Source of the DNA: a virus
Lineage: Duplodnaviria > Heunggongvirae > Uroviricota > Caudoviricetes
Length of the DNA: 64,000 nt
Virus record (IMG/VR): IMGVR_UViG_3300021400_000141
Coordinates: 321,354 to 385,353 of that record
Reading direction: 5' to 3' (one strand)
Both the position numbers and the translations under genes were made by a program. The notes under the pieces are model-generated. The model was given only the letters and a program-made list of their open reading frames with translations, did not search any database and was not told the DNA's origin. Shown here one piece after another: positions 38,608 to 60,495 of the stretch; the first letter of the stretch is position 1; every line of letters starts with the position of its first letter.

Positions 38608-38636
38608 TTGACAAAGGGGGTTTAATTATCTATATT
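38608..38636 (+). promoter_or_regulatory. sigma70-type promoter with hairpin around the -35 and conserved TTTAATTATCTATATT core
   Basis: aaccccccTTGACAaagggggtttaattatcTATATTatt. Confidence 0.55.
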
Positions 38637-38665
38637 ATTCAAGTAAACACAAAAAGGAACCAAAA

Positions 38666-39091
38666 ATGAAAGCACCGAAAAAGACAATCAATGTCATTGT
38701 GAATCCTACAAAGGGAGCAATCGAGCGTATTGCAAGCGTCAGGTTGATTCGTGGGTACGATGACGGTCGCATCAAGAAACAATTTGCCAAAGTGGACGGA
38801 TGCGCTATTTTATATCCTGAAACACATCTCATGCCGAAGGATGCTGCTGTTCGTACAAAGAATGTTATTGACCTGTTCCTTGAAAGTGATGGAACTGAGT
38901 TTAACATACTCACTGTATCGACCGATGTATGCATTCTCGCACACGATTACGGTAAACACAAGAAGTGCAAGGTGAAGTTGTCCTATCAGGACAAACCGTC
39001 TACACTTGCAAAAGTGTTCAAGAAGTTCAATGAATTTTTCACTTACAATGCCAGGGTGACTGAAGACATAGACAGTATTTGGCATGAGTAA
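38666..39091 (+). CDS. hypothetical protein
   Basis: RBS aaaaagga; 141 aa. Confidence 0.5.
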   Translation: MKAPKKTINVIVNPTKGAIERIASVRLIRGYDDGRIKKQFAKVDGCAILYPETHLMPKDAAVRTKNVIDLFLESDGTEFNILTVSTDVCILAHDYGKHKKCKVKLSYQDKPSTLAKVFKKFNEFFTYNARVTEDIDSIWHE

Positions 39092-39108
39092 CCAAAAGAG
39101 AGGAAATC

Positions 39109-39417
39109 ATGGCATACAAATCATTCGACGAAAATGCCAAGGAACTCGGGGGCATAACAAACAAGGAGAACAACATGACGGAAACAAAGGAAACCATCCC
39201 ACAGCGCATCACGCTTGACGGCGTGGAAGTTCGCAATATCGAAATTCATGATGGCCAGTTCGACAGTCACTATGAAGACCTGGTTAGCCTGGAGGATGTC
39301 GAGCGCCTCGTTGAGCAGGCGAATTGCCTCATTTGCCTTAGCGAAGGCAAGGCCTCTGGCCTCCAATATGCGCTTAACGCGCTTCTTGAAAAGACACACA
39401 AGTCCAATAAAGGTTAA
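39109..39417 (+). CDS. hypothetical protein
   Basis: RBS agagagga. Confidence 0.5.
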   Translation: MAYKSFDENAKELGGITNKENNMTETKETIPQRITLDGVEVRNIEIHDGQFDSHYEDLVSLEDVERLVEQANCLICLSEGKASGLQYALNALLEKTHKSNKG

Positions 39418-39430
39418 AAGGAGTTAAAAA

Positions 39431-39814
39431 ATGGAATACAAATCATTCGAAGAAAAAATCAAGGACTATGATGCCCGTAGCGACATACACTACCATGTGT
39501 ATTTCAGTTCTGCATCGTACACCTATTGCGTGGACGTGCTTCAGTTCAAGAAGAAGTCCGATATCAAGAACGACTTATACAAGAACAAGAAGTATTATTC
39601 CACTTATGCGGAAGCACAGGCAGTCGCTGATAAGCTCAATGCAAAGGACACCGATGTTGGCCATCTTTTCGGCAGGGCTGCAAGTGAATTTGAGCATAAG
39701 ATGTATGAACTCCTTAAAATGGGAGGAATGACAGAGGCCCAGAAGTATGCTATTGAAGCGGCGAATGCTAATGTGCATGCGCTAACCAAGCTTATCAACG
39801 ACGAGCACTTCTAA
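39431..39814 (+). CDS. hypothetical protein
   Basis: RBS aaaggag. Confidence 0.5.
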   Translation: MEYKSFEEKIKDYDARSDIHYHVYFSSASYTYCVDVLQFKKKSDIKNDLYKNKKYYSTYAEAQAVADKLNAKDTDVGHLFGRAASEFEHKMYELLKMGGMTEAQKYAIEAANANVHALTKLINDEHF

Positions 39815-40074
39815 TGCGTTGCAACGGATGTCCATACGAAAGTTACGACTACCAGGAAGGATACCCGACCTGCAGACTGTTCGGTGATGACGACGAATTC
39901 ATCTACGAGAACGCAAAGGGCGAACTCGGATGTAGGTTCAACCAACGTGGCTTGCAAAAGTACATCAGGATGCATGAGGCAGAAGAAGAGGAAATCGTCA
40001 GACAGATGGGCGATTTCGCCAAATGGTATGAAGAAACATATAAAACCCAATCCAATCAGGAAAACGCCAAGTAA
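39814..40074 (+). CDS. hypothetical protein
   Basis: stop/start overlap; C-x2-C ... C pattern (CNGCPYE, CRLF). Confidence 0.45.
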   Translation: MRCNGCPYESYDYQEGYPTCRLFGDDDEFIYENAKGELGCRFNQRGLQKYIRMHEAEEEEIVRQMGDFAKWYEETYKTQSNQENAK

Positions 40075-40087
40075 AGGAAACTGAATT

Positions 40088-40570
40088 ATGTACATGATGA
40101 GAAGAGTACACGCTGAGCAGAGCCCAAAAGGCGGCCACATGAATGTCTGGGTAATGCAGTGGAAACACGCTGACCTCAACGAATTGATTAAAAAGGCCAG
40201 ATTCAACCTTGACCCGTTCAAGGAAGTTCCTGGTTGCTGCATGTGGGAAGACCACTCCCCTGACCAGAATAAGTTGCCAGGATGCGTGTGGCAGGGCCGT
40301 GTGGACGAGAATTTCGAATGGAACGACAGTATTGTTCACGGGATTACCCACTGCATGATTTTCAACATCTCGAAATGCTGGTACAGTTCCGTTCTGTCCC
40401 GAGAGACGAGCGATTGCGACAACGCCCTTATCCGTTTCAACTGCAAGTTTGATGATGAAGTATACCCGTCGTTCGCCACAATCAAGGAATGCGTGGACTA
40501 CCTGACAAGCCCAGAGGGTATCGGGATATGTAGCAACAGAGATATCAAACCTGTGGAGGTTGACAAATGA
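40088..40570 (+). CDS. Cys-rich hypothetical protein
   Basis: RBS aaggaaa; many Cys/His residues. Confidence 0.5.
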   Translation: MYMMRRVHAEQSPKGGHMNVWVMQWKHADLNELIKKARFNLDPFKEVPGCCMWEDHSPDQNKLPGCVWQGRVDENFEWNDSIVHGITHCMIFNISKCWYSSVLSRETSDCDNALIRFNCKFDDEVYPSFATIKECVDYLTSPEGIGICSNRDIKPVEVDK

Positions 40571-40767
40571 CAGCGTTATACATCGGTATCTACATCATCG
40601 TCGCACTCGTAATCTATCTCGCCGCACTGTTCGCATGGGCGTTTGGCTTCGGGATGGCTTATCCCTATGCCAAATGGTATCACTGGTCCAACCTCGGATG
40701 CGCATGCATTATGTTCGGATATCCCATCGCTGCAATCGCAGCAGGAATTCTAATCTTCGCTCGATAA
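40567..40767 (+). CDS. small membrane protein
   Basis: two hydrophobic helices; ATGA overlap with the previous gene. Confidence 0.45.
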   Translation: MTALYIGIYIIVALVIYLAALFAWAFGFGMAYPYAKWYHWSNLGCACIMFGYPIAAIAAGILIFAR

Positions 40768-40794
40768 AAAATCATAAAATTTACATAAACCCGC

Positions 40795-40823
40795 TTGACA
40801 AGGCGGGTTTAATTGTCTATATT
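40795..40823 (+). promoter_or_regulatory. sigma70-type promoter with hairpin around the -35
   Basis: aaacccgcTTGACAaggcgggtttaattgtcTATATTaac. Confidence 0.55.
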
Positions 40824-40859
40824 AACACATGTAGCACACAAACAAAAAAAGGAACAAAC

Positions 40860-41576
40860 ATGCTTGCATATCTCAAATGGTTATTTACCCCGAAGTCCCG
40901 TCCTGCCTATGTTTTGGACTGGTTCAACAAGAATATCGCAGTGAATCCCAAGTTGGCTCCCTTCATGGGCAGATTGAAGGTGGAAACTGCACAGGATGAA
41001 CTTCGGTTCATCGTATCATCAGGTATCTATAGCAATAAACAACTGTGGGAAGTTCATTGCACTAATGTGAAGCGTCTGTACACTCGTGCAATGGAATACC
41101 CGAATGCGAAACAGGGGGATTCCTTGATTGACAGCATCATCTATCATATTAAAGAGGTGGATGCTGCGGTAAAGTCGTTGGACAAGTATTTTCTCCGTAT
41201 TTTTGACAACTCTAATTTTAATCTGACTGACTTTGATTACAGTTCATCTACGTTTGGCCAAGTGTCTTTGTGCCCTGCTGGTGTTCTTCCTCTGATGGAG
41301 GCGACTGAAAAGGATATCAAGAGGCAGGGTAACCATTTGTACAATGATGAACTTGCTCTGAAGGCAGACCTCGGTAATTATTATAACTACATTATCAAAG
41401 AATTTTCGAAGCGGCTTAACGGTCGTAAGCCTAAGGCAAGTTCCCCTCATATTGATGTCAAGACATTTGAAGAATGGCGTATAGACAGAGACATTATTGC
41501 CAAGGCTGATGCGGAAGAAGAACGGTTGAGCAAGGCCTGTACCAAGGTTCTTGACGACATAAGTAGAGGAAAATAA
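40860..41576 (+). CDS. hypothetical protein
   Basis: start set at the ATG downstream of the promoter with RBS aaaaaggaac; the track ORF has a 100-aa spurious N-terminal extension. Confidence 0.5.
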   Translation: MLAYLKWLFTPKSRPAYVLDWFNKNIAVNPKLAPFMGRLKVETAQDELRFIVSSGIYSNKQLWEVHCTNVKRLYTRAMEYPNAKQGDSLIDSIIYHIKEVDAAVKSLDKYFLRIFDNSNFNLTDFDYSSSTFGQVSLCPAGVLPLMEATEKDIKRQGNHLYNDELALKADLGNYYNYIIKEFSKRLNGRKPKASSPHIDVKTFEEWRIDRDIIAKADAEEERLSKACTKVLDDISRGK

Positions 41577-41577
41577 T

Positions 41578-41985
41578 ATGAAAACACTTTTCTATGTTCG
41601 CTCGGCTATGCTCACCCTGTTTGAAGCATATCCTGATGACCCGAAGACTGGTTGGATGGCGGGGCGTGAATGCCTAGGTTCCACCAATCTGGATTACCGT
41701 GGTAAGTACGACTCGATTGCATCCCTGCTAACCTACATATCCCCTAATGACACATACTATCCCATTAGCGAATGGGAAGTGTCCAATGTTGAGGATGGCG
41801 GGTTCCTGCTTAACTTGGATGTACTTGTTGACCACAATAAGCTCGCACCGTCGCCCGACCGTATTAAAGCGTGGAAGGAAGGTCATGCACACTTGTGCCA
41901 TGGCTACTATTCCATCGAGGTGAAGGCACAGCGTATCGAGGATATTTCCGCAGACGAACTGCAGAAACTTATTGAAAAGGCATGA
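41578..41985 (+). CDS. hypothetical protein
   Basis: RBS gaggaaa. Confidence 0.5.
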   Translation: MKTLFYVRSAMLTLFEAYPDDPKTGWMAGRECLGSTNLDYRGKYDSIASLLTYISPNDTYYPISEWEVSNVEDGGFLLNLDVLVDHNKLAPSPDRIKAWKEGHAHLCHGYYSIEVKAQRIEDISADELQKLIEKA

Positions 41986-41992
41986 GGAAACC

Positions 41993-42568
41993 ATGAGAAA
42001 AGCGGCAGCAAAAAAGATAAAGGCGCTTGAAGACAAGATTGATGCCTTGCGAAACAAGCAGGATGAAATCAGGCATAAGGAATGGGAATATGAAGAGGCC
42101 GAAGAGAAACGTAAGTGGATGAAGGACAATGCCGAGTGCATTCCGTTCTGTAAGGCTCTTGTAGGCAAGGCATTCACCTTTGGCGATTCTGTGATAAAGC
42201 ATCATACGGACACGGAGAATGGTGTTGTCACCAGTGAATATGATTATATCAGCATCTATTTTGCAAAGATAGTCAGCTATCGTGAGAAGTCTAAGGTGTG
42301 CATGGCGGTCAGGCACATGTACAGTGGTGACACATACGCCACATTAGATGACAACACTGAGATGTTCATTAGTTTGGAAAAGCGTGGCAAAGACTGGATG
42401 GCCGATGAACGTGGCAGAAGTTTCCTCGGAAAGGTGCATGTATTAACCGATGAAGAACTGCAGGAAGCGTTCGCATTCTGGGAAAAACGTATGTCCGAAC
42501 TTGGGCGTAATGCGTTTATCGACCCTTCCAAGAACAGGTGGGTATGCCCGACGTTGTCGAATAAATGA
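41993..42568 (+). CDS. hypothetical protein
   Basis: ATG after gaggaaacc. Confidence 0.5.
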   Translation: MRKAAAKKIKALEDKIDALRNKQDEIRHKEWEYEEAEEKRKWMKDNAECIPFCKALVGKAFTFGDSVIKHHTDTENGVVTSEYDYISIYFAKIVSYREKSKVCMAVRHMYSGDTYATLDDNTEMFISLEKRGKDWMADERGRSFLGKVHVLTDEELQEAFAFWEKRMSELGRNAFIDPSKNRWVCPTLSNK

Positions 42569-42579
42569 CTGAGGTAAAT

Positions 42580-43152
42580 ATGCAAAAACGAATGAAGACT
42601 AAAAAAGATTATGATGCGGCCATGGACGCTATCGATTGCAAGCTTGCACAGATTAGCAAGACCGCTGATGAACTGGAAGCCAAGCGGAGAGCGCTGCAGA
42701 ATAAAAAGAGGGCTAAGTTCGACCCAGAATACCGTGCCGAACAGGCAAGGCGACGGAAAGTCAACGCCGAGCGCAAAAGATTGATAGCGGACGCCGCCAA
42801 GAAGTTCGTCGGCAAATGGGTGTTCCTTGACGACGGAACGTACATACATATTTGTGGCGTAGACGCTCCTACGAAAGAATCCTCCAGTGGAGAATACCAG
42901 GGTGAAGGATATCTCGTGTTTCCTACGCACTACGACATAAGCGTTGTGGCTGGCGACGGTAACGTCAAAATAGCCAATGGAACGTCAAAGAACCATGGAG
43001 TGGTATATCTCACCTTATATGCTGAGGACGTGATTAAAGTACCAAAGAAGGATGTCATGGAAGACCTGGAGAGCAAATTGGGTGATGTAATGTCCAACTA
43101 CAAGGCATTGTGCAAGCGGATGAAATGGAAACCTTCCGTATGCAAAGCATGA
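42580..43152 (+). CDS. hypothetical protein
   Basis: ATG after gaggtaaat. Confidence 0.5.
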   Translation: MQKRMKTKKDYDAAMDAIDCKLAQISKTADELEAKRRALQNKKRAKFDPEYRAEQARRRKVNAERKRLIADAAKKFVGKWVFLDDGTYIHICGVDAPTKESSSGEYQGEGYLVFPTHYDISVVAGDGNVKIANGTSKNHGVVYLTLYAEDVIKVPKKDVMEDLESKLGDVMSNYKALCKRMKWKPSVCKA

Positions 43153-43177
43153 CGTGTGTTTTTTTTGCATAAACCCC

Positions 43178-43206
43178 TTGACAAGAGGGGTTTAATTATC
43201 TATATT
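43178..43206 (+). promoter_or_regulatory. sigma70-type promoter with hairpin around the -35
   Basis: aaaccccTTGACAagaggggtttaattatcTATATTatg. Confidence 0.55.
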
Positions 43207-43247
43207 ATGTCGTGTAGAATGCACAAAGGCATCAAAAAGGAGTTATT

Positions 43248-43772
43248 ATGTATTCCGAAATTCAAGACGGGCCTGCACGTATCGGAACATCCAAGTTTTT
43301 CTTCGATGTGTGGTATAAGATAACCAATGAAAAAGCGTTGGTTCCGTGTGGGTATTGCGGGAATGGTTGGAATGCCGATTCCAACGAGCCGCCCAAGACT
43401 TATTTTGTTGGTGACTATTCCAGGGAACAGTTCAACTCGGTGCTGTTTCGATTGAGTATCTCGAAATCTTCATTGTGGGAAGGCAAATATGATGTCAAGG
43501 TGCTTTGCTTTGCCGACACCAGAGAGTGCGGGGCTGAAACTATCGTCTATATGAAGACTGATGACCCAAATAAGATTGAGGCTCGCATGTTCGAATATGC
43601 AGCCGACGTGCTTTCCCGTTCTGGTGCTGTATTGGACCATGAATTGAACCAGAAGGATTTCGAATCACGTAAAGAAAAGATTGCTACCATGCAGGCGTAT
43701 AACGACAAGTTGGCCAGAATTATGCAAATCGATAAAATCGGTAAAAACTTGAAAGAGCTTTTTCATAACTAG
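43248..43772 (+). CDS. hypothetical protein
   Basis: RBS aaaaaggag; 174 aa. Confidence 0.5.
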   Translation: MYSEIQDGPARIGTSKFFFDVWYKITNEKALVPCGYCGNGWNADSNEPPKTYFVGDYSREQFNSVLFRLSISKSSLWEGKYDVKVLCFADTRECGAETIVYMKTDDPNKIEARMFEYAADVLSRSGAVLDHELNQKDFESRKEKIATMQAYNDKLARIMQIDKIGKNLKELFHN

Positions 43773-43780
43773 GAGTTAAC

Positions 43781-44326
43781 ATGGCTGTAAAACTACCAGA
43801 TGAGCCTAAACAGTTGAAATCCCTTTGTGAAAGGTATCAGAAGCAAGTCAAGGAACTCACGCAGAAGTGCGAACGCGAGAACCTAAAATGGGGGATGGAG
43901 GAATACTATCTCACCCAGAAGATTCGTGACTTCGAGAAGCTATGCGAGAACAACGACATTGGTTTCGACATCGTGAACGAGCTTGACAAAAAGCGTCGCC
44001 ACCTGCCAAGTGCCAAGAAAGAGCCTGTCACCGAGGAACAGTTCCTGTCGGTGTTCACTCATTATTACCCTCATGCCTATATTCACAATGTGGATGATAA
44101 AGACTTCGACGATATCTGGGTTCGTGCCAAAGGATTTTGGGAGGCCGACAGAATACTGTACAGCCGTTCCGATAAGGAAATCCGCATGTGGAGAACCAAA
44201 GGCCAATATGACTACCATTTCAATTCAATCAAGGAATTTGAATGCTGGTTAGAGAGAGCGCTGTTTAGAGACAGAGAATTTGAAAGAAAGAGTGAAAATA
44301 ATGAAGAGGCAAGGTGTACAATTTGA
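43781..44326 (+). CDS. hypothetical protein
   Basis: RBS taggag. Confidence 0.5.
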   Translation: MAVKLPDEPKQLKSLCERYQKQVKELTQKCERENLKWGMEEYYLTQKIRDFEKLCENNDIGFDIVNELDKKRRHLPSAKKEPVTEEQFLSVFTHYYPHAYIHNVDDKDFDDIWVRAKGFWEADRILYSRSDKEIRMWRTKGQYDYHFNSIKEFECWLERALFRDREFERKSENNEEARCTI

Positions 44327-44341
44327 ATAAGGAGATGTCAT

Positions 44342-44599
44342 ATGACGTTCTTTGAAATGGAAGGATATAAAGAGGGCGAACGCTATCCAGAATGCACCGT
44401 TAGGTATACCACGTTCAAGGGAGCTGTCGAACATTTGTCCCGCTCCGTTGGGGGTCTCGGACACCTGTCCAGAGTGGTTGTATACTACGTTGGTCAGGCG
44501 CATCCTAGCGCCAAGCTCATCAGGCTTTCTAAATGGATGGTGTCATCCCGAAAGCTGTGTAAATTTATCTTGAACAATTGTCCGTTTATTGAGAAATAG
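44342..44599 (+). CDS. hypothetical protein
   Basis: RBS aaggag. Confidence 0.4.
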   Translation: MTFFEMEGYKEGERYPECTVRYTTFKGAVEHLSRSVGGLGHLSRVVVYYVGQAHPSAKLIRLSKWMVSSRKLCKFILNNCPFIEK

Positions 44600-44606
44600 G
44601 GTTGAT

Positions 44607-45017
44607 ATGACTGCATCAGAAGAAATGCACAAGGAATATGTAGAGCAGGCTGCAAAGAACATTGATTTCGTGTTCGTTCCTGCGTTGCTTAAATTTGATG
44701 GAAAATACTGTAATGTGCCTGAACTTCATTGGGAACAGTCAATGAAGCCGTACCCACAGGATGACCCCCGTGCGTTCGGCTATCACATCGGAAATTTCAG
44801 TGCTCGTTTCGAGCGTAATCCTGATACGCACAGACTCGACACATTGGTACTCACGTTTGAAGAAGGAACTTTCGAGGGATTCCTTCATCCAGACGACAAG
44901 GTGAAAATCGACATGACCAAGGATGCTTTCACCAAGTTCCATGTAACCTATGACCCGAAGACGGAAAAGCTTAAACTCGACCGTCTTGAAGAGAATGTAA
45001 AAATCGCAAAGGAGTAA
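44607..45017 (+). CDS. hypothetical protein
   Basis: internal ATG with a short upstream purine run. Confidence 0.45.
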   Translation: MTASEEMHKEYVEQAAKNIDFVFVPALLKFDGKYCNVPELHWEQSMKPYPQDDPRAFGYHIGNFSARFERNPDTHRLDTLVLTFEEGTFEGFLHPDDKVKIDMTKDAFTKFHVTYDPKTEKLKLDRLEENVKIAKE

Positions 45018-45019
45018 TC

Positions 45020-45591: not shown

Positions 45592-45611
45592 GTATTTTTA
45601 CAGGACACCCC

Positions 45612-45639
45612 TTGCATTTTGAAATAATTTTCCTATATT
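45612..45639 (+). promoter_or_regulatory. sigma70-type promoter (TTGCAT, 16 nt, TATATT)
   Basis: ccccTTGCATtttgaaataattttccTATATTttt. Confidence 0.45.
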
Positions 45640-50163: not shown

Positions 50164-50622
50164 ATGTTAAAATTTTACATCGAAGCTCTCAAATTCGTAT
50201 GGGCATGGACTAAGAAATTCCTGCTTGCTATTACTGTTCTGCTCCCAGGCATCATCTTCCTGATATACATGTTTGCCGAAAATATGCCAGATGTAGGGAT
50301 AATCCCAGGCCTCCTCGTCATTGCCGCTATTGCACTGTGGGCACCAATTCCTCTGCGTCCGTTCTTCTTTCAAGGCCAGAAATTGATTGAATGCTATGTG
50401 ACAATGTTTGGGGCGATAGGTATTGCGATTGCGTTCTGCCTTGTCTTGTTAGGCTGGCTTGTGTGGTTGCTCCTTCCTATCCTAACTGGATTGGTTATAA
50501 GCGCCGTATTGAACCGTGAACCAAAACCACTTGAATGTGTAGGAACAATAGTATTCAACATTGTTTGGGGCCCAGGTGCTCATTACGTTTACCAAAAGCT
50601 GCTTGACAAAGTAATTAAATAA
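50164..50622 (+). CDS. membrane protein
   Basis: multiple hydrophobic helices. Confidence 0.5.
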   Translation: MLKFYIEALKFVWAWTKKFLLAITVLLPGIIFLIYMFAENMPDVGIIPGLLVIAAIALWAPIPLRPFFFQGQKLIECYVTMFGAIGIAIAFCLVLLGWLVWLLLPILTGLVISAVLNREPKPLECVGTIVFNIVWGPGAHYVYQKLLDKVIK

Positions 50623-50643
50623 TCCTATATTCAATGAAGATAA

Positions 50644-50718
50644 TGCCCCGTAGCTCAATGGACTTAGAGCGTCGCTCTCCGAAGGCGAAGGTTACGAGTT
50701 CAACCCTCGTCGGGACAA
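50644..50718 (+). tRNA. tRNA-Arg (anticodon CCG)
   Basis: acceptor tgccccg/cgggaca (one C-A mismatch), U8, D-stem gctc/gagc, anticodon loop cuCCGaa, variable aggtt, T-arm acgag-TTCAACC-ctcgt, discriminator A. Confidence 0.65.
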
Positions 50719-50722
50719 CTAA

Positions 50723-51563: not shown

Positions 51564-51592
51564 TTGACAGCACTTTCGTTCTTTTCTATATT
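51564..51592 (+). promoter_or_regulatory. sigma70-type promoter (TTGACA, 17 nt, TATATT)
   Basis: cccccTTGACAgcactttcgttcttttcTATATTtat. Confidence 0.55.
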
Positions 51593-51599
51593 TATAAAC

Positions 51600-51900
51600 G
51601 GACACAGGGGAAACCCTGTGGGACAGCAAACCAAGCCGTGGATGGCGGCTACATACGCTGTTCATCCCTTCATGGATGCATCGTGAAGCGGTTGGAGTCG
51701 GACCGTATGAGCGACCAAGGTTCAGCCCGTCTCCTAAATGGGGCCAGTTGACGCTTTTCGAGTTTCGATGATTAAGCCATCGCGATGGTCTGATGTAAAC
51801 TCGTAGCACTTGCGACGACTAAACTTGCCCTCGGGGTAATTTGAATGCCGCAGCGTATCCCCCCTACGCTTAGCCTCATCAGCAGGGGGTTTTCTTTTTA
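51600..51900 (+). ncRNA. candidate ~300-nt non-coding RNA with its own promoter and terminator
   Basis: no ORF with an RBS inside; 5' hairpin cacagggg-aaa-ccctgtg just after the predicted TSS; several internal hairpins; ends with cccccc...ggggg then ttttcttttt. Confidence 0.4.
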
Positions 51901-51916
51901 TAGAGAGTAAGTCAAA

Positions 51917-52687: not shown

Positions 52688-52951
52688 ATGATTGTCCGAA
52701 TAACTGAAACAGTTTACAGCGAGTTCAGCGGCGTGTATAAACGTGAACCCGTCCTATACAAGATACCAGGAGAACTGCAGAAGATGGTTGATGATATCCA
52801 CAAGATGTCAAGGGATAGCGCAATCAAGGCAGATATCTTCTCCGCAGAACTGACAGACAGCGATAATCTCCTTTGTAATAATCCATATCATAATAGTCCA
52901 AGTTGTAATAAGGAGGAGTCAGATGGTTGTGACACAGGAACGAGTGATTGA
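52688..52951 (+). CDS. hypothetical protein
   Basis: ATG after gaggaacct. Confidence 0.45.
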   Translation: MIVRITETVYSEFSGVYKREPVLYKIPGELQKMVDDIHKMSRDSAIKADIFSAELTDSDNLLCNNPYHNSPSCNKEESDGCDTGTSD

Positions 52952-53097
52952 TTGGCTCGAACGTCAGATAGGATTCGTAAAGGCGAACCACCTCGAAAAT
53001 TGCCTTATGACAAATGATGGCGACCTGAAGATGGAGCCAGAGCATCCTAACCTATGCACCATCGTCATCTATGACCCGAGGATTCCAGCAATATAAT
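52924..53097 (+). CDS. small hypothetical protein (57 aa)
   Basis: below the cutoff; strong RBS aaggaggag. Confidence 0.4.
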
Positions 53098-53130
53098 GTA
53101 AGAATTTTTAAAAAAATGTCCGAACCCGCT

Positions 53131-53159
53131 TGACAATGCGGGTTTAATTATTTATATTG
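53131..53159 (+). promoter_or_regulatory. sigma70-type promoter with hairpin around the -35
   Basis: gaacccgcTTGACAatgcgggtttaattatttaTATTGg. Confidence 0.55.
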
Positions 53160-53184
53160 GTAGCACAGCATAAGGAAATAGAAA

Positions 53185-53493
53185 ATGTCGAACCTATTGA
53201 AACTCCGTGTAGAACTGGCAGATGGCTGCATTCTTGTGGGCGAGGTAGTCAGCGTAGGCAGCAAACCACAGTCCCCAGAATACTTTGACAAACCTCAGAT
53301 GAAGTGGTTTATGGACTTACGGACGGACACGCTCGGGAAGGTCGAAATTAACGCTCTCAACATCGTAAAAATGGGACCAGACCCTATTAAGATGCAGGAA
53401 TTCAAGGACCCTGTGGAGGTAGTCAACCACGTGATGGAGCTTATGCGGGTTGCCAAAAACATGCCCCTCGACTTCCTGAAACTAAGAGAGTAA
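53185..53493 (+). CDS. hypothetical protein
   Basis: RBS aaggaaa. Confidence 0.5.
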   Translation: MSNLLKLRVELADGCILVGEVVSVGSKPQSPEYFDKPQMKWFMDLRTDTLGKVEINALNIVKMGPDPIKMQEFKDPVEVVNHVMELMRVAKNMPLDFLKLRE

Positions 53494-53496
53494 ACT

Positions 53497-53987: not shown

Positions 53988-53990
53988 ACC

Positions 53991-54212
53991 ATGAACAACC
54001 TGTTGAACCCAGCTAACCCGATTTCCCCGCTAAACCCGATTAACCCCATATCCCCTCTGCACGACGGCCTGTTCAAGTCGCCCTCTGACACACTATACAA
54101 TATGGCAGCGGCAACATCGACCGATATTCCTATGTTCGTTCTGGGTATGTTCCTTGGCATCGTATTCACTCTCATTCTATGCGTATTCATCTTTCTTTGG
54201 AAAAAAGGATAA
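53991..54212 (+). CDS. small membrane protein
   Basis: PISPLNPINPISPL repeats, then a TM helix. Confidence 0.45.
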   Translation: MNNLLNPANPISPLNPINPISPLHDGLFKSPSDTLYNMAAATSTDIPMFVLGMFLGIVFTLILCVFIFLWKKG

Positions 54213-54216
54213 CACC

Positions 54217-54372
54217 ATGAAGAAACCTCTCGTCGTATTCAAGGATTGGTGCATCTGCACGGATAGCCCAGTCATCTACTACTCCATCGTTGTACTGTCT
54301 TCCCTAGCCCTAGGATTCTTTATCGCCTATGTATGGATTCCCTTAGTGCAATGGATACACACCTATGTCTGA
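54217..54372 (+). CDS. small membrane protein (51 aa)
   Basis: ATG after aaaaaaggata; hydrophobic C-terminal half. Confidence 0.4.
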   Translation: MKKPLVVFKDWCICTDSPVIYYSIVVLSSLALGFFIAYVWIPLVQWIHTYV

Positions 54373-54541
54373 AAAGCAAGATGGCATGTCATACCTGATG
54401 TTCACAAACAGGGATACGAACCGTTTCTTGTGGAACAACAAGGTTCGCAAAGAGATTCTCGAAGAGAACAGACCGAAGGAACCACTTGAACCAGTTGAAC
54501 AAGAAGACGATGGTTAACTAAATTCAATGTAAAGGAAACCT

Positions 54542-54826
54542 ATGGCAACCCCGATTAACTTCGTCCTACCTGATAGCGGCCCGTTCCGCTTCATCCATGA
54601 ACAGTTCCGCAACGACAAGCGGTTCGCAGATGAGGTTCGCAACGGCGGTGCAATCGTCGTCCTATCCATGACAAAACCCATTATCAAAGTCAAGGTCGCA
54701 AAAGACGGAAAGACACTGTTTGCCGACGAACAGGGCCTCTATGAGGACTGGCTATACTGCTGCCCTGGAAAAGAATATCTCAAAACTTTCGAACGCACAA
54801 CCACATACAAACGAATCAAAAGGTAA
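54542..54826 (+). CDS. hypothetical protein
   Basis: RBS aaaggaaacc. Confidence 0.5.
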   Translation: MATPINFVLPDSGPFRFIHEQFRNDKRFADEVRNGGAIVVLSMTKPIIKVKVAKDGKTLFADEQGLYEDWLYCCPGKEYLKTFERTTTYKRIKR

Positions 54827-54830
54827 ACCT

Positions 54831-55124
54831 ATGTCACAACCAATCGTAATCTCTCCCGAAGCGGCGAGCGAAGTAAACCAGAAAATCAAGGAACTCAAAG
54901 AAACCCTCGAAAAGCACAACCTGCTCATGGTGTTCAATGTCGAAATCGGTGAGGGATTCCTGTTCCCGAACACATACAAGGTATGTTCTATCGACGACCC
55001 TGAATACGACGAGGCGGACCCCACCGATTTGCCCATGTCCGTAGACGGCACCCGAACCAAGATTGGTGACTGCATGTCCACCTTCGAGAAGCATTACAAC
55101 GCAATTATTTCAACCAAGAGGTAG
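54831..55124 (+). CDS. hypothetical protein
   Basis: ATG after caaaaggtaaacct. Confidence 0.5.
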   Translation: MSQPIVISPEAASEVNQKIKELKETLEKHNLLMVFNVEIGEGFLFPNTYKVCSIDDPEYDEADPTDLPMSVDGTRTKIGDCMSTFEKHYNAIISTKR

Positions 55125-55129
55125 ATATT

Positions 55130-56191
55130 ATGATGTCGCTTGACGAATGCAAGAAGCATGCGGCAAACGGTGAACCATGCCAGATGATGACTCCTGATGG
55201 CAAATGGGTTCCGTTTAATGAAACACAAGTAATAACGAAGTTCCGTGTCGCTCCCCGTCTGTTCGAGAACAGCGGCCCGAGAATCGTGATGTACGCCTTG
55301 CTCAGCCTCGAAAAAATGGTCGAACGCCATTTCCGCAACACATTCTTGTGGATTGACCTGCCGCAATCTGGTTTCAAGGAAGACTGGACTCTGACCGCTG
55401 GCTACCATGGCAAACTCGGTGCTCGTGACATAAGGGTTGAACCAAGTATCGAAGACCAGGTAAGAGCCGTACTGGGGAAACCGAAGACGGAATATCTTGA
55501 CCGTACGGATTTACGCCTCAGAGATATATTCAGAACGTATTTCCGTGTCCGTAAAGTAAAACCAACCGTGTACGAAGTCCAGTGCCGCTCTCTGACGAAA
55601 GCCCAAGACGATAACAACTGGATTACCATATTCAGGGTGAAACAGGAGCATTTCAAGGAACACGACGATTTCAATCTTGCCTCTAAGGATGCACCTCTTA
55701 GCTGGTGCATCGAAACCTGCGCTGATTACTCGTATATACCTAAAGAATGGAAGGAAAGGCTTGGAACATACCAGTATAGTACAACTGAGCGATATCGAAT
55801 CAAGCAACAGCGTATCAAGAGCGTATCAAAAATAACGCCATGCGGAACCGAGATTCTCAACAACATCGCACTCTGGATTTGCAACTACCTGACGTTCATC
55901 AGCCATATCGACATGAACCTGAAGGACTTCTCGGATTTCATCGAGAATAACATGGAAAAGACAGACAGCCCGACTCACCGTCTGGCTACACCAGGATGGA
56001 CTACGAACAACAGGAGCCTTGTCATATACTACCAGTACAGCGAATTTGCAAAATATCGAGATGCCGCCCTTGGGAGACGCCAGTATGATGAAAACGGGTA
56101 CTTAGATTACCGACAGGCACACGCAATACTTCTGCGATACTTCAATATGAAATATCACGGGACCATCTATGAAGTGAGAGAGAAACAGTAG
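55130..56191 (+). CDS. hypothetical protein (353 aa)
   Basis: RBS aagaggtag; largest unassigned ORF in the right half. Confidence 0.55.
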   Translation: MMSLDECKKHAANGEPCQMMTPDGKWVPFNETQVITKFRVAPRLFENSGPRIVMYALLSLEKMVERHFRNTFLWIDLPQSGFKEDWTLTAGYHGKLGARDIRVEPSIEDQVRAVLGKPKTEYLDRTDLRLRDIFRTYFRVRKVKPTVYEVQCRSLTKAQDDNNWITIFRVKQEHFKEHDDFNLASKDAPLSWCIETCADYSYIPKEWKERLGTYQYSTTERYRIKQQRIKSVSKITPCGTEILNNIALWICNYLTFISHIDMNLKDFSDFIENNMEKTDSPTHRLATPGWTTNNRSLVIYYQYSEFAKYRDAALGRRQYDENGYLDYRQAHAILLRYFNMKYHGTIYEVREKQ

Positions 56192-56240
56192 TTCATTAGG
56201 CGATATCAAACAAAATCTAATCAAATCAGGAGATAACACC

Positions 56241-56651
56241 ATGTTCAAACGTGAATTGACAAACCTTGAAGAAAGACTTTACGACTTCCTCGACTTCGCA
56301 GACAGCACACTGGAATACGATGTCTCCCAGAAGTCATGGGAAAAGCTGCGGGAAGCAATGAAACGCTGCAAGGAAGACTGCAAGGTGAAATACGGAGTCA
56401 TCAACAACGGTTACTCCCTCCATGTGGAACTTCCCTTCGACGTGGACAAGTACATGAAGCAACAGGAAAAGAAGAGCAACCTCCTGCAGGACATGAAGGA
56501 AGACCCAGCAGCCAACAAGCTCGGCGAATTCATCGTCAACCAGCTCGGTATCAACCTCGTTTCCGTCGATGGCATCAAGGTCGAAAGACAGCATGACGGC
56601 CAGATTACCGATATCCACATCGCTTTCATCCCCGCACCAAAGGAAGCATAG
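56241..56651 (+). CDS. hypothetical protein
   Basis: RBS caggagat. Confidence 0.5.
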   Translation: MFKRELTNLEERLYDFLDFADSTLEYDVSQKSWEKLREAMKRCKEDCKVKYGVINNGYSLHVELPFDVDKYMKQQEKKSNLLQDMKEDPAANKLGEFIVNQLGINLVSVDGIKVERQHDGQITDIHIAFIPAPKEA

Positions 56652-56653
56652 TT

Positions 56654-57079
56654 ATGACAAAGCCAGTTTCACCTGTTCCAGTTTCCCAGTTTAACTACAA
56701 CTGCATGAAGAACCTCTGCAACAACGAAGTCCACCAGTTCAAGAGACCTGCTCCTTGGGACAATGACAAGGAAGTAAATGCGGCCCACTGGGTTTTCAGT
56801 GAGGAATACGCCCTTAACCACGACGGGTTCGAACTCTTCTGGCATACACCTGGAGTTATGGACGGTGGTGAGTATGTAGTAGCCAAGTTTCCCAAGGACG
56901 GCCCAAAGGACACGCTCGTGGTAGAAGCGCATAAGGACGGCTTCGTTCCGATGGGTGTCATCAAAAGTACAGAAATCAAGCTGGAACGTGGCAAGAACAG
57001 GATGATTCTCCTCTACTATGGCGAACTAACGAGTGAATTCAAGGTCTACTTTGTAGATGAACAAAATAAATCAAATTAG
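56654..57079 (+). CDS. hypothetical protein
   Basis: RBS aaggaag. Confidence 0.5.
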   Translation: MTKPVSPVPVSQFNYNCMKNLCNNEVHQFKRPAPWDNDKEVNAAHWVFSEEYALNHDGFELFWHTPGVMDGGEYVVAKFPKDGPKDTLVVEAHKDGFVPMGVIKSTEIKLERGKNRMILLYYGELTSEFKVYFVDEQNKSN

Positions 57080-57088
57080 AGGTAAACT

Positions 57089-57349
57089 ATGTCACTGAAA
57101 GCTAAAAGAACCCTGGTCGTATCCTTTGTCATCCTCACGGCATTCTCCCTGGGTCTGGCCCTCATTTCGATGCGTGGCTTCTCCATTGCAGGATGGCTCC
57201 TCCTCTCCATGCAGGTGGAACTCGGTATACTCGTATTCGCCTTGCTCGTCATAGGCATCATCGTAGGTTACGGATGGGCCCTTACCGCAGATGCCCACAA
57301 GTCGTTCTTGGCATATCTCAAATTCATCGTTCAACACGTACTGGAGTAA
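57089..57349 (+). CDS. small membrane protein
   Basis: two TM helices; RBS agaggtaa. Confidence 0.45.
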   Translation: MSLKAKRTLVVSFVILTAFSLGLALISMRGFSIAGWLLLSMQVELGILVFALLVIGIIVGYGWALTADAHKSFLAYLKFIVQHVLE

Positions 57350-57353
57350 ACCT

Positions 57354-57635
57354 ATGGCCGTACACTACTCGATGCTCTGCAACCCACGAAAGGACGGGGA
57401 CGGAAAAGCCATTGCCGAAGACCTGAGGAAGAGACTGAGAGAAAGCCTCGTGGCGTTCACAGCCGACAAGAAAAAGGATGAGTTCGTCAGGATAACATCT
57501 AGCCGCTACCTCTCCGATGGAGATATCAGGGTGTGTTTCATCATGGACGACAACTCCGCCCAGAAACTCACAGGCTTCCTCTATGACCATCAGGACGAAC
57601 TGGACATAGATATCCTAGAAGCGGGAAAAGACTAA
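57354..57635 (+). CDS. hypothetical protein
   Basis: ATG after ggagtaaacct. Confidence 0.45.
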   Translation: MAVHYSMLCNPRKDGDGKAIAEDLRKRLRESLVAFTADKKKDEFVRITSSRYLSDGDIRVCFIMDDNSAQKLTGFLYDHQDELDIDILEAGKD

Positions 57636-57652
57636 AAATACAAAAAATATCT

Positions 57653-57681
57653 TGACAACCAAGATTTAATTATCTATATTA
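57653..57681 (+). promoter_or_regulatory. sigma70-type promoter with inverted repeat overlapping the -35
   Basis: atcTTGACAaccaagatttaattatcTATATTaatg. Confidence 0.5.
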
Positions 57682-57686
57682 ATGGC

Positions 57687-57863
57687 ATGAAGACTATAAA
57701 ATTTGTATTAAGATTATTGTTTTTCAATTTTATTACTTGGATTTCTGTAGTAATTGCACTTTTAATTGTTGACAAGTCCGAAACTTGTACATATATCAGT
57801 TATGTACTTGTAAACATTTTTGTTTTTACCTGGATATACATTTTAACCCATCCTGCTAACTGA
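57687..57863 (+). CDS. small AT-rich membrane protein (58 aa), apparently leaderless
   Basis: ATG about 7 nt after the -10; no RBS; hydrophobic LLFFNFITWISVVIALLIV. Confidence 0.35.
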   Translation: MKTIKFVLRLLFFNFITWISVVIALLIVDKSETCTYISYVLVNIFVFTWIYILTHPAN

Positions 57864-57872
57864 TTTCATATT

Positions 57873-58505
57873 ATGGAAAACAAAAAGAAATACACATTCT
57901 TCTCCGCTGGCGAACTCGAAAACGAAATCGCTGGCAAATGGGCTTACCAACCCCTCGGCTTGCTTATGGTGTATGCCAGCAAGCTAGCCGACGAGTTCTA
58001 CGAGGGTGTCAACGATACCGTCGGCCCCATGCTGCAGGACACCGTTGACGACCTCTATGATGCCTATGCCGAAATCAAGGACGAGAACATCAAGGTCAAA
58101 TCCCTTAAACAACTCAGGGCGTGGATGGATGCCATCGTCCCCACCTTCGAATGGATTGAAGCCAATATCACCGACCCGGCCACCCGTGGAATGTTCGAAA
58201 ACAAGGTCGCAGGCAACGGTGCAGGCCCCCTCGGCATCCTCGTAGGATACTCATCTAATCTCTGGCACGATACCTCCAAGGCAATCGCATACAAAATCGG
58301 AACACCCCTCCGTGAATCCGTGGACAGCTACTACGCCAAGGATAAGCAAATCACGGACAAGAACGCAAGGATGAAAGCCCTCAAACGTATTCGAGTTTGG
58401 CTCGATGTAATAATCGACGCTGTCTCCTATGTCGAAGAAAGAACCGACAACTCCGATTTAACCATCAAGAAAAAGGACCACAACCAGATTTTTCCAATGA
58501 GGTAA
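57873..58505 (+). CDS. hypothetical protein
   Basis: 210 aa. Confidence 0.5.
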   Translation: MENKKKYTFFSAGELENEIAGKWAYQPLGLLMVYASKLADEFYEGVNDTVGPMLQDTVDDLYDAYAEIKDENIKVKSLKQLRAWMDAIVPTFEWIEANITDPATRGMFENKVAGNGAGPLGILVGYSSNLWHDTSKAIAYKIGTPLRESVDSYYAKDKQITDKNARMKALKRIRVWLDVIIDAVSYVEERTDNSDLTIKKKDHNQIFPMR

Positions 58506-58510
58506 CAACC

Positions 58511-58921
58511 ATGTCCAGAAGAACACGTGAATTGGAATATGACTTCAAAAACCACATGCAAGAACCCGTAAAAATCCGCCTCGTCCATGATTTCGACGAC
58601 GAATACGCAATGGAATTCTGTCTCCTGAATGAAAGCCCCTGTTGGCATCAGGTTCAGGAGTACATACATACCCTAGACCATACATATGAACCTGGTTCAA
58701 GCACATGCTATAGCAGCGGTGTATGGACCACCCGTTGGTTCAAAGTCAACGACATCGGCCACGGCAAGAAGATTCTCGAATATTACAGGGGGAAAATCAA
58801 TACGGTTGCCGATATATACTGCCTCTTCATTGAAAAGGGAATCCGTGAGCGTGAACGAGATATTGAAGCCTACAAGAAGTATAAGGCACACCTAGAGTCA
58901 ATCCCAGATACAATCGAATAG
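58511..58921 (+). CDS. hypothetical protein
   Basis: ATG after gaggtaacaacc. Confidence 0.5.
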   Translation: MSRRTRELEYDFKNHMQEPVKIRLVHDFDDEYAMEFCLLNESPCWHQVQEYIHTLDHTYEPGSSTCYSSGVWTTRWFKVNDIGHGKKILEYYRGKINTVADIYCLFIEKGIRERERDIEAYKKYKAHLESIPDTIE

Positions 58922-58950
58922 GTAAAAATATACAAAAAAGGAACAAAACT

Positions 58951-59349
58951 ATGCTTGATTTTCTGTTTGGAAACAATGAAAAAAGGGCAGTCCTAGACTG
59001 GCTTGTGGAACATGATAACGGTGATTATCATGGCTTTTATATGACTTATGGCTATGAACTTAATCGGTTTTATTACGAACAAACTTACAGTTTGGATGCG
59101 CTGAAGCAAATGAAAGAAGATATGATTGCTAAACACAATCGTTATCTTTATGAAAAAGCCCACCCGAAGCCGAAAATCGGGGAAACCTACAATGTCTACC
59201 TATGCGGCAACCACGTAGATACCCTCTACCACGTCACGAACGTTTCCTCCAACGAACACGGAGCCTTCTTCACCATCACGAACGAGGACGGAACCACCTC
59301 CCTCAAGGAATACTGGGGCTCTGGCAGCATCAACTGGACTAAAGAATGA
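58951..59349 (+). CDS. hypothetical protein
   Basis: RBS aaaaaggaac. Confidence 0.5.
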   Translation: MLDFLFGNNEKRAVLDWLVEHDNGDYHGFYMTYGYELNRFYYEQTYSLDALKQMKEDMIAKHNRYLYEKAHPKPKIGETYNVYLCGNHVDTLYHVTNVSSNEHGAFFTITNEDGTTSLKEYWGSGSINWTKE

Positions 59350-59927
59350 CACTTATGACCCCACTAAAGCAAACACTGGAATATATCCGCTCGCTCGACC
59401 ATGACGGATGCCAGAAGGAACTGGAACAGATTGGCCACGCCCTGTTCACGAGTAATGGCAAAGTGATTCACGACAATATAAGAAACGACAAGATTGTCAG
59501 GAAACACTACGATGAAGAAAAACGCCGCTTCACCGAACAGATGTTCTCCTATGTCTCCAACGGGCAGATGATACCCGTGGAGCTGGTAAACAGCCTGTGC
59601 CGCTTCCTGTACCAGTCCCACAGGCACTGCTTCCCTGGCTTCATGGGCTTTAACCGAGTTAACGACCGCAAGCACATTACAAGGTGGCTCGACGACATGA
59701 AACATCCCGAGGAGGCATGCGTACATGCCTGTTACGTGATTCGTAAGTATATCAACGGGAAGGGAGCCACCGATATAATGCTTGGCAACCTCAAGAAAGG
59801 GTTCCAGCACTACGGACGTGCCAAGGACCCGAACCAAAGGATATGGTCGTTGATTGAAACCATGTTCATTAACTCAGTACACCAGTATTACTGGACGATG
59901 GAAAAGAAGATGCATGACCCGTTCTAA
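59346..59927 (+). CDS. hypothetical protein
   Basis: ATGA overlap with the previous gene; 193 aa. Confidence 0.5.
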   Translation: MTLMTPLKQTLEYIRSLDHDGCQKELEQIGHALFTSNGKVIHDNIRNDKIVRKHYDEEKRRFTEQMFSYVSNGQMIPVELVNSLCRFLYQSHRHCFPGFMGFNRVNDRKHITRWLDDMKHPEEACVHACYVIRKYINGKGATDIMLGNLKKGFQHYGRAKDPNQRIWSLIETMFINSVHQYYWTMEKKMHDPF

Positions 59928-60264
59928 CGGAAGCAGGGTTGAACGAGGCTTCTACAACGAGAGGTTACATCAGTTGATGCGTACTAAACAAATAACAGTT
60001 ACACCGAACAAGGATGCTCCAATATATACGGTGCAGTTCCATGCTTGGCTGTATAATGAACTAAAAGAATATATCGATAAGAAGATTATATCTATATTTT
60101 ACAGTTCAGCGTACGGTTGCGTAGTTACTCTGCGAGACACGCCATCGGAAGAATTGCGAGTTTTGGAAATGTCTCCACTAATGTCCAGGGATGATTTATT
60201 ATTCAACATCAAACTATGGATTAGACTGAAAACTTCGGATGCAGAACACCATGACCGACCGTAA
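59914..60264 (+). CDS. hypothetical protein
   Basis: in-frame ATG overlapping the end of the previous gene. Confidence 0.4.
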   Translation: MTRSNGSRVERGFYNERLHQLMRTKQITVTPNKDAPIYTVQFHAWLYNELKEYIDKKIISIFYSSAYGCVVTLRDTPSEELRVLEMSPLMSRDDLLFNIKLWIRLKTSDAEHHDRP

Positions 60265-60301
60265 GGAATCATAGCCAGTCAAAAATACAGGAGACGCTAA
60301 T

Positions 60302-60448
60302 ATGCCAGTTATGGACAAGCTGAGACAATGTGCTGAAAAAATGGGTTATCATCTAGGCCCTATAGACCAGAAAATGGAAAAGGCTATCGACGAAGCCTTC
60401 GACGCAGTCTTTGAAGATGAAGAAAAATCGAATAAAGAACAAAAATAA
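60302..60448 (+). CDS. small acidic protein (48 aa)
   Basis: below the cutoff; RBS caggagacg. Confidence 0.35.
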   Translation: MPVMDKLRQCAEKMGYHLGPIDQKMEKAIDEAFDAVFEDEEKSNKEQK

Positions 60449-60466
60449 AAAATGTTTCAAAACCCC

Positions 60467-60495
60467 TTGACAACCGTGCTTTAATTATGTATATT
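60467..60495 (+). promoter_or_regulatory. sigma70-type promoter (TTGACA, 17 nt, TATATT) with TTTAATTATGTATATT core
   Basis: aaccccTTGACAaccgtgctttaattatgTATATTctt. Confidence 0.55.

Follow-up and report, generated by a model that had tools for sequence, protein, structure and literature searches.

In T4-type phages, the cassettes known as PeSLs combine a strong sigma70-like promoter with an A/T-rich upstream region and a stem-loop, which can take five possible positions, one of them overlapping the -35 box, and which terminated transcription in a lacZ reporter assay (PMC2839356). PeSLs concentrate in hyperplastic regions where genes of unknown function abound; recombination between the cassettes yields mini-circles, and they have been proposed to act as homology patches (PMC2839356). 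The stems of phage nt-1 follow the pattern A3-4 G3-loop-C3 T3-4 (PMC4122927). Here, we analyze a comparable family of promoter cassettes in a stretch of 64,000 nucleotides from a virus of the class Caudoviricetes (positions 321,354 to 385,353 of IMG/VR record IMGVR_UViG_3300021400_000141; this whole stretch is called the window, and positions count from its first letter). The cassettes have a TTGACA -35 box, a 17-nt spacer with the near-invariant segment TTTAATTA and a TATATT -10 box, and a subset carries a GC-rich hairpin around the -35 box, which is a probable terminator of the upstream gene.

We judge PeSLs to be the closest known system, which would make the element one of a kind already described, in a phage lineage that is undescribed. 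The composite of promoter, A/T-rich upstream region and GC-rich stem-loop recurs here, and the nt-1 stem is mirrored as A3-4 C3-5-loop-G3-5 T3-4. The location is similar as well, namely a plastic region rich in genes of unknown function (Pfam matches for about 20 of 130 proteins, 26 junctions of indels or replacements in 29 kb, and arrays of cassettes in the related contig L006). In contrast to PeSLs, the cassettes appear to belong to another phage lineage, with no nucleotide and only weak protein matches to cultured phages; their -10 box is TATATT without exception, with a near-invariant spacer TTTAATTA and a conserved leader; the stem-loop is found in no more than about 11% of them; and breakpoints do not clearly coincide with them, there being no excess of junctions.

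Strong early phage promoters that use the host polymerase, such as those of T5 (PN25), T7 (A1-A3), T4 and SPO1, share the near-consensus boxes, the 17-bp spacer, the A/T-rich upstream elements, the many copies per genome and the conservation beyond the two hexamers. However, they are not built around a terminator hairpin, and the spacer and leader described here are unusually conserved, with hundreds of copies. Intrinsic terminators, including bidirectional ones, resemble the hairpin in their GC-rich stem of 7-11 bp, their loop of 4-8 nt, the preceding A-run and the following T-rich run, whereas here the T-run is short and interrupted (TTTAATTAT) and doubles as promoter spacer, and the loop holds the -35 box. 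Morons of lambdoid phages are single genes with their own promoter and terminator and, to our knowledge, share no common cassette sequence. Stoperators of cluster A mycobacteriophages, finally, are short oriented intergenic repeats found genome-wide; they are repressor-binding sites without a -35/-10 architecture.

The motif is strongly overrepresented in the window. With up to 3 mismatches allowed, its 16-mer core TTTAATTATCTATATT matches 22 times, where 0.81 matches would be expected, and none of 100 shuffles scored as high. Counting both strands, 19 sites carry TTGACA-N17-TATATT exactly and account for 28% of the TTGACA hexamers of the window and likewise for 28% of its TATATT hexamers, and one-mismatch copies of the family lie at 1310, 21268(-), 37110(-) and 8917(-). 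Spacer length is 17 in 19 of 21 sites, 15 and 16 once each, and never 18 or 19; the -10 box at exact TTGACA-N17 sites is TATATT throughout, with no TATAAT or other variant in the window. An earlier sequence-only reading had counted more than 20 promoters with 17-nt spacing, which is about right when the four one-mismatch copies are added to the 19 exact sites. The seven promoters it had singled out all exist. Their plus-strand TTGACA boxes lie at 38608, 40795, 43178, 53130, 57652 and 60467, two of which it had placed 1 nt off (53131 and 57653), and the minus-strand copy, given as 35524, was misplaced by about 10 nt (promoter 35534-35562, hairpin 35549-35574). The family extends far past these coordinates, through all of the window and into a clade of related phages.

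The placement of the sites agrees with promoter function. Genes were called by a codon-usage model, and the calls match those on an identical public contig of 21 kb (L015). About 10% of the window is intergenic, and none of the 19 exact sites lies wholly within a called gene, the promoter at 50603 overlapping the final 20 nt of gene 50164-50622. All 19 face the next gene, tRNA or untranslated RNA. The distance from the -10 box to the start codon is 11-42 nt in 16 of the 19 (exceptions 50603, 51564 and 57652). Motifs resembling a ribosome-binding site precede 120 of the 133 called genes (90%, compared with 20% of random 13-mers), a figure somewhat inflated by the use of such motifs in choosing the start codons, and their frequency is in line with a host that uses conventional signals for transcription and translation. 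The 19 exact sites also conform to the pattern of TTGACA-like and TATAAT-like boxes (A at position 2, T at position 6) spaced by 16-18 bp. Taken with the exact hexamers, the strict 17-nt spacer, the intergenic position, the correct orientation, the 11-42 nt to starts preceded by a ribosome-binding site and the copy 13 nt ahead of a tRNA gene, this supports the proposal that they are near-consensus sigma70-type promoters.

At 57652, the promoter is followed by a hydrophobic reading frame of 58 codons (57687-57863; MKTIKFVLRLLFFNF...), the ATG of which lies 7 nt after the -10 box; its mRNA may be leaderless, since no ribosome-binding site stands ahead of the ATG. In the relative, a different gene begins 6 nt after the -10 box of the orthologous promoter, and homology stops 9 nt after this box.

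In related viral and metagenome contigs, we found at least 225 distinct copies of a cassette of about 75 nt, drawn only from loci with two or more copies in the viral scans and a generic metagenome pattern scan. Among loci L100-L221 (117 from the metagenome scan), 80 had fewer than two exact promoters and were excluded as chance or unrelated. Class frequencies from the viral scans are biased, the first having required TTTAATTATC and the second GGGTTTAATT; bystander copies and the generic metagenome pattern are free of this bias. The consensus starts with an A/T-rich upstream part, aaaaCCTC or aaaaCCCC, TTGACAA and about 5 free positions, and continues with aTTTAATTA, 2 free positions, TATATT, an A/T-rich start region, an A/C-rich leader (frequently ATAGAAACAAC), GGAG and ATG. 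The spacer segment TTTAATTA holds 1.2-1.9 bits per position in the relatives. By the last three spacer bases, the cassettes fall into three subclasses with distinct flanks, AGG, AAC and AT[C/G/T], the last of which includes all seven promoters of the sequence-only reading. Conservation is graded along the element: over 12 orthologous pairs between the window and a close relative, compared without gaps, identity is 98.6% in the -35 box, 97% in the -10 box, 94% in the distal and 76% in the proximal spacer, and 80% in the 10 nt upstream of the -35 box. In some regions of the relatives nearly every small gene has its own cassette copy; L006, with the dense arrays mentioned above, holds 14 copies in 12.9 kb, ahead of proteins without known function.

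Copies of the AGG subclass (L005, L006, L009 and L013) contain an additional conserved box, TTTACA(C/A)AAAAA, located some 25 nt ahead of the -35 box, and the leader ATAGAAACAAC is conserved among them. We rejected this TTTACA box as a second promoter, there being no -10 box at the proper distance, and dropped a second inverted repeat, ACCTA...TAGGT, spanning the whole promoter in relatives, which showed no consistent co-variation by eye.

In a subset of the cassettes, a hairpin accompanies the promoter itself. We folded 34 nt around each -35 box and compared the result with shuffles of the flanks. Five sites of the window form strong hairpins, with folding energies of -13.1 (38608), -16.6 (40795), -14.1 (43178), -13.7 (53130) and -16.1 kcal/mol (35562(-)), each at p <= 0.007, and their stems reach into the A and T runs on either side, for example TAAACCCGCTT-GACA-AGGCGGGTTTA. 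The same folding gave no hairpin at 12 other exact sites of the window, 60467 among them. The inverted repeat around the -35 box, which the sequence-only reading had attributed to all seven promoters, was thus recovered in five of them, while 57652 shows only a weak structure (-4.4 kcal/mol) and 60467 none. Across the clade, the hairpin is present in 24 of the 225 cassettes (around 11%), in 18 distinct sequences.

Several lines of evidence show that the hairpin is neither chance nor a by-product of the C-rich left flank, because swapping of flanks destroys it, orthologues contain compensatory changes and stability is higher for the RNA of the sense strand. Re-pairing left and right flanks among the promoters gave on average 1.9 hairpins of -10 kcal/mol or below (maximum 8 in 200 trials), compared with 24 observed; within the 34 copies that have a right-hand G-run, the mean was 5.4 and the maximum 11 in 500 trials, again compared with 24. 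In orthologues of the 35562(-) hairpin, the arms read ATCACCCGTG/CATGGGTGAT, CGCTCATG/CATGGGCG, TCGCTCGTG/CACGGGCGA and, in another register, CCCCTC/GAGGGG, with compensatory changes at two pairs and a covariation score of 0.27 versus 0.125 in shuffles (8 of 500 reach 0.27). The promoter at 60467 has an orthologue (L017:17894) that bears the hairpin AAAACCCC-TTGACA-GGGGGTTTT; the two differ only in 8-10 nt of the proximal spacer, and the flanks are otherwise identical. Moreover, the sense-strand RNA is more stable than the antisense one in 14 of the 18 distinct hairpins (Wilcoxon p = 0.004), and 13 hairpins have one or more G-U pairs on the sense strand, compared with 4 on the antisense strand. 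Flank swap, compensatory changes and strand bias all point to selection on the structure, within a small sample of related copies. Of the 24 hairpins, 23 belong to the AT[C/G/T] subclass (Fisher p = 1e-12), and this confinement suggests that cassette lineages spread as units.

With moderate confidence, we favor the explanation that the cassettes are promoters of the host's primary sigma factor, and that the hairpin with the following TTTAATT acts as an intrinsic terminator or attenuator of the upstream gene. A polymerase with a primary (sigma70/sigmaA-type) sigma factor, most likely that of the host, would bind TTGACAA, the 17-bp spacer and TATATT, probably assisted by the upstream region, which is A/T-rich and resembles an UP element, and by the A/T-rich part of the spacer (TTTAATTA, about -22 to -15). 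Transcription would start some 7 nt after TATATT and yield a short A/C-rich leader containing a ribosome-binding site. In one subclass, the 5-9 nt or so before the -35 box are complementary to the first 6-7 nt of the spacer, and these two stretches are the ones not fixed by the promoter. As the hairpin precedes the start site of the cassette itself, it would be transcribed solely by read-through from the upstream gene. Such RNA could fold into a GC-rich hairpin of 7-11 bp with the -35 sequence in or beside the loop, directly followed by UUUAAUU, which the fixed spacer would provide as U-tract. In this way, a single stretch of about 45 nt could terminate the upstream transcript and start the next one. 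The motif statistics, the placement and orientation of the sites, the conservation in the clade, the co-variation of the arms and the sense-strand bias are direct results of the computation, and from them we infer the identity of the polymerase, the start site and the actual termination.

The context of the hairpins is consistent with this explanation. All five strong hairpins of the window follow a gene on the same strand, four of them 18-26 nt and one 243 nt past the stop codon, and none occurs at a divergent promoter pair. They account for five of the nine intergenic terminator-like hairpins of the window. Directly after the five hairpins stand tails of TTTAATTAT or TTTATTTAT, with at least 5 T in 8 nt, a weaker tract than in textbook terminators. 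All five sites thus combine a GC-rich hairpin, a U-rich tract and a same-strand upstream gene, as intrinsic terminators do. Among the roles previously suggested for the hairpin, termination of the upstream gene is the one best supported by the co-varying arms, the sense-strand bias and the position after genes.

Several observations weigh against this explanation. Besides being short and interrupted (UUUAAUUAU), the U-tract can lose its first U residues to pairing with the A-run that precedes the stem, so that termination is possibly weak. The hairpin is dispensable, because 201 of the 225 cassettes, and 13 of the 19 in the window, lack it though they also follow same-strand genes. The segment TTTAATTA is equally conserved in copies without hairpin; a terminator leaves this conservation unexplained, and it must therefore serve the promoter or another purpose. 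The fixed TATATT and the near-invariant spacer exceed the uniformity that recognition by a host sigma factor needs, and this excess could indicate a phage-specific factor or homogenization of copies by recombination. The best bacterial matches of a ClpX homologue encoded in the window, a weak indication of the host, are mostly from Bacteroidota, the polymerase of which does not use promoters of the TTGACA/TATATT type. Finally, the copies are kin by descent, and the permutation statistics overstate their independence.

One possible source of the excess uniformity would be a phage-encoded sigma factor or a phage-modified host polymerase, with TTTAATTA, TATATT and the leader ATAGAAAC as its specificity elements. 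We consider this unlikely. In its favor, every exact site has TATATT and never TATAAT, TTTAATTA retains the information content given above in the relatives, the subclasses AGG, AAC and AT[C/G/T] have distinct flanks, and the palindromes TAATTA and TTAATTAA would suit a dimeric factor. However, the combination of a perfect TTGACA and a good -10 box with exactly 17 bp between them is the hallmark of a primary sigma factor, whereas phage sigma factors usually recognize sequences far from the TTGACA/TATAAT consensus, and no sigma or polymerase domain was found among the 25 listed of 39 Pfam families in the 130 window proteins, which represent about one third of the genome. A regulator may also bind the invariant TTTAATTA spacer. 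With low confidence, we can also picture the cassette as the recognition unit of a phage-specific mode of transcription, which could rely on a phage factor on the palindromic spacer or on a modified polymerase, and the hairpin-bearing AT[C/G/T] subclass as self-insulated, mobile single-gene cassettes spreading inside and among the genomes of the clade. If true, this would bring PeSL-like modular shuffling to an unrelated phage lineage.

Recombination offers a further explanation, in which the cassettes are kept mainly as homology patches for the shuffling of modules, the hairpin is a signal at the DNA level, and promoter or terminator activity is secondary. The region is indeed highly plastic. 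We compared positions 32000-62000 of the window with the related contigs L016 and L017, L018 and L019. Against a relative of 85-92% identity, we counted 26 junctions (indels or replacements of at least 100 bp) in 29 kb; the more distant L018 and L019, with about 70% protein identity for the anchor gene, have patches the size of a gene, 84-93% identical in nucleotides, in changed order. Five of the 26 junctions touch a cassette; of these, one coincides exactly with the -35 box of 32745(-), and at both 37110(-) and 57652 a junction follows the -10 box by 9 nt. The near-restriction of hairpins to one subclass (23 of 24), suggestive of cassette lineages that spread as units, and the patch of 8-10 nt at 60467 between otherwise identical flanks would also fit. 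Even so, we find this explanation rather doubtful. Window-side boundaries fall in a cassette in 5 of 52 cases (9.6%), compared with 12% for gene ends and 4.8% for all bases, and no excess at cassettes over gene ends in general was seen with these 26 junctions in 29 kb against one relative; on this ground, the recombination-hotspot property of PeSLs is not clearly shared by the cassettes. In addition, the sense-strand bias and the G-U pairs indicate a structure of RNA and not of DNA.

The RNA-level evidence for the terminator is shared by the idea that the hairpin stabilizes or processes 3' ends within polycistronic transcripts, and the weak U-tract would agree with it. We nevertheless regard it as improbable: the T-rich spacer always stands directly after the hairpin, and a stabilizer would still require an event that forms the 3' end there. 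As RNase III needs a stem of about 20 bp, the stems of 7-11 bp are too short, and a site for this enzyme was rejected. Very unlikely, lastly, is the suggestion that the inverted repeat, centered on the -35 box where its bound or extruded form would block sigma region 4, regulates its own promoter, either as an operator bound by a protein or as a cruciform formed under supercoiling: the arms vary among the copies (CCCCC, CCCGC, CCCAC, CACCCGTG, CGCTCATG, CCCCTC) with pairing kept, which argues for a structure and against a sequence-specific site, and a cruciform was rejected on stem length and strand asymmetry, because arms of 7-11 bp with loops of 4-8 nt are poor cruciform formers, loop size (4 to 8 nt) and register vary, and sense-strand G-T pairs would be A-C mismatches on the other strand.

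Table 1 Promoters and hairpins of the cassette family, and genes of a CRISPR-Cas-like locus, in the window
Feature	Position	Strand	Sequence and folding energy	Context
Promoter	38608-38636	+	exact core TTTAATTATCTATATT	start codon of gene 38666-39091 30 nt downstream
Hairpin	38601-38622	+	AACCCCCTT-GACA-AAGGGGGTT, then TAATTATC; -13.1 kcal/mol	surrounds -35 box
Promoter	40795-40823	+	core TTTAATTGTCTATATT	for gene 40860-41576
Hairpin	40786-40811	+	TAAACCCGCTT-GACA-AGGCGGGTTTA, 11 pairs; -15.8 to -16.6 kcal/mol	19 nt past stop of gene 40567-40767
Promoter	43178-43206	+	exact core	for gene 43248-43772
Hairpin	43170-43194	+	TAAACCCCTT-GACAA-GAGGGGTTTA; -13.3 to -14.1 kcal/mol	18 nt past stop of gene 42580-43152
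Promoter	53130-53158	+	core TTTAATTATTTATATT	for gene 53185-53493
Hairpin	53122-53145	+	GAACCCGC-TTGACAAT-GCGGGTTT, full -35 box in loop; -12.9 to -13.7 kcal/mol	begins 26 nt past stop of gene 52923-53096
Promoter	35534-35562	-	core TTTATTTATGTATATT	for gene 35365-35502(-)
Hairpin	35549-35574	-	ATCACCCGTG-TCTTGA-CATGGGTGAT; -15.6 to -16.1 kcal/mol	26 nt past stop of gene 35600-35944(-)
Promoter	57652-57680	+	exact core	weak alternative hairpin TCTTG-ACAAC-CAAGA at 57650-57664, -4.4 kcal/mol, other register
Promoter	60467-60495	+	core TTTAATTATGTATATT	without hairpin in the window
Family promoter	50603-50631	+		-10 box ends 13 nt before tRNA-Arg(CCG) 50644-50719
Family promoter	51564-51592	+		precedes conserved untranslated stretch of about 310 nt, 51593-51905
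Divergent back-to-back pair	645-731	both	both exact	673 to 645 (-), 703-731 (+)
Divergent pair	8890-8954	both	spacer 16 in the minus-strand copy	8917 to 8890 (-), 8926-8954 (+); the two -35 boxes form an inverted repeat
Exact family promoter	12830-12858	+		without hairpin; 3 nt past upstream stop codon
Divergent pair	21240-21327	both	-35 box TTGCCA (-); exact (+)	21268 to 21240 (-), 21299-21327 (+)
Exact family promoter	23789-23817	+		without hairpin
Exact family promoter	30663-30691	-		without hairpin
Exact family promoter	32717-32745	-		homology with relative stops exactly at -35 box; two-gene insertion in the window
Divergent pair	37082-37309	both	-10 box TACATT (-); exact (+)	37110 to 37082 (-), 37281-37309 (+)
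Exact family promoter	63624-63652	-		separate strong hairpin 63692-63716 upstream
Cas3-like HD-plus-helicase gene	14598-16835
Weak Cas7fv match	16937-17962			NCBIfam type I-Fv Cas7fv, E = 3.5e-25, under family cut-off
Two reading frames without family match	17968-18909, 18918-19469
Array	19467-19932			8 repeats, period 60-61 nt

The window is part of a large uncultivated phage, because it is syntenic with an IMG/VR contig of 175 kb (IMGVR_UViG_3300021431_000077; 78-97% identity, mostly 85-92%). In IMG/VR, a scan for the pattern located the motif on contigs 175-422 kb long. A megablast search of 8 kb against 50,697 phage records gave no nucleotide match, tblastn of four window proteins gave only weak, scattered matches to unrelated phages, and no hallmark genes are present in the window. 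The few window proteins with Pfam matches include accessory functions, namely a Cas3-like helicase, ClpX, RtcB, a NadR-like protein with an NMN transporter, UDP-galactopyranose mutase and a DNA methylase. The ClpX homologue has matches of about 55% identity in several phyla, mostly Bacteroidota, in a peptide-seeded search that is biased and not decisive. The cassette consensus lacks the TTTG at -7 of the Bacteroidota-type promoter (-33 TTTG / -7 TAnnTTTG), and the promoter type together with the ribosome-binding sites argues against a Bacteroidota host. Two of the related contigs, IMGVR_UViG_3300028914_000001 (L019, 422 kb) and 3300028797_000099 (L018, 175 kb), are near-identical over 21 kb; given this near-identity despite a 2.4-fold difference in length, concatenation or mis-assembly, and not a larger genome, may account for the 422-kb contig.

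Apart from the cassettes, the window contains further features of interest. The region 14598-19932 resembles a phage-borne, minimal CRISPR-Cas locus of type I-Fv with an unusual array (Table 1). Its repeat reads approximately GTTTCCCGTG-NNNN-CGGGAATTGAAA(C/G), and the 4-nt hairpin loop is different in each copy, which is unusual for CRISPR. No family match suggestive of cas1 or cas2 was found among the neighboring reading frames searched, and a near-family promoter, CTTACA-N17-TATATT (-10 box ending at 16904), lies ahead of the Cas7fv-like gene. A second feature is the GC-rich, untranslated stretch 51593-51905, which extends from the promoter at 51564-51592 to a terminator-like hairpin followed by TTTTCTTTTT. 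Its core is near-identical in L017, L198 and L156, with flanks of about 80-85% identity; among three sequences, compensatory changes occur at four pairs, the folding z-score is only -1.2, and there was no Rfam match at E <= 1. The stretch is a candidate for a new phage non-coding RNA. A cluster for RNA repair and NAD salvage, of a type known from large phages, spans 24532-26980; it includes tRNA-Leu(TAA) (25692-25768) between the NadR-like gene and the gene for the RtcB RNA ligase, with the NMN transporter gene just upstream. At 30352/30353, two convergent genes touch with zero gap and no terminator-like hairpin between them.

For the biology of these phages, the cassettes provide a ready-made predicted transcription map of an uncultivated clade with genomes of about 175 kb, in which each gene or short operon has a strong promoter of its own, as do a tRNA and a candidate non-coding RNA. 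Constraints on the identity of the host come from the promoter type and from the high frequency of ribosome-binding sites. If functional, the design with the -35 box in the loop would combine termination and re-initiation in about 45 nt and could serve as a compact insulator in synthetic biology. Altogether, composite promoter-terminator cassettes, previously reported from T4-type phages of Gram-negative hosts, would appear to exist in an unrelated phage lineage as well.

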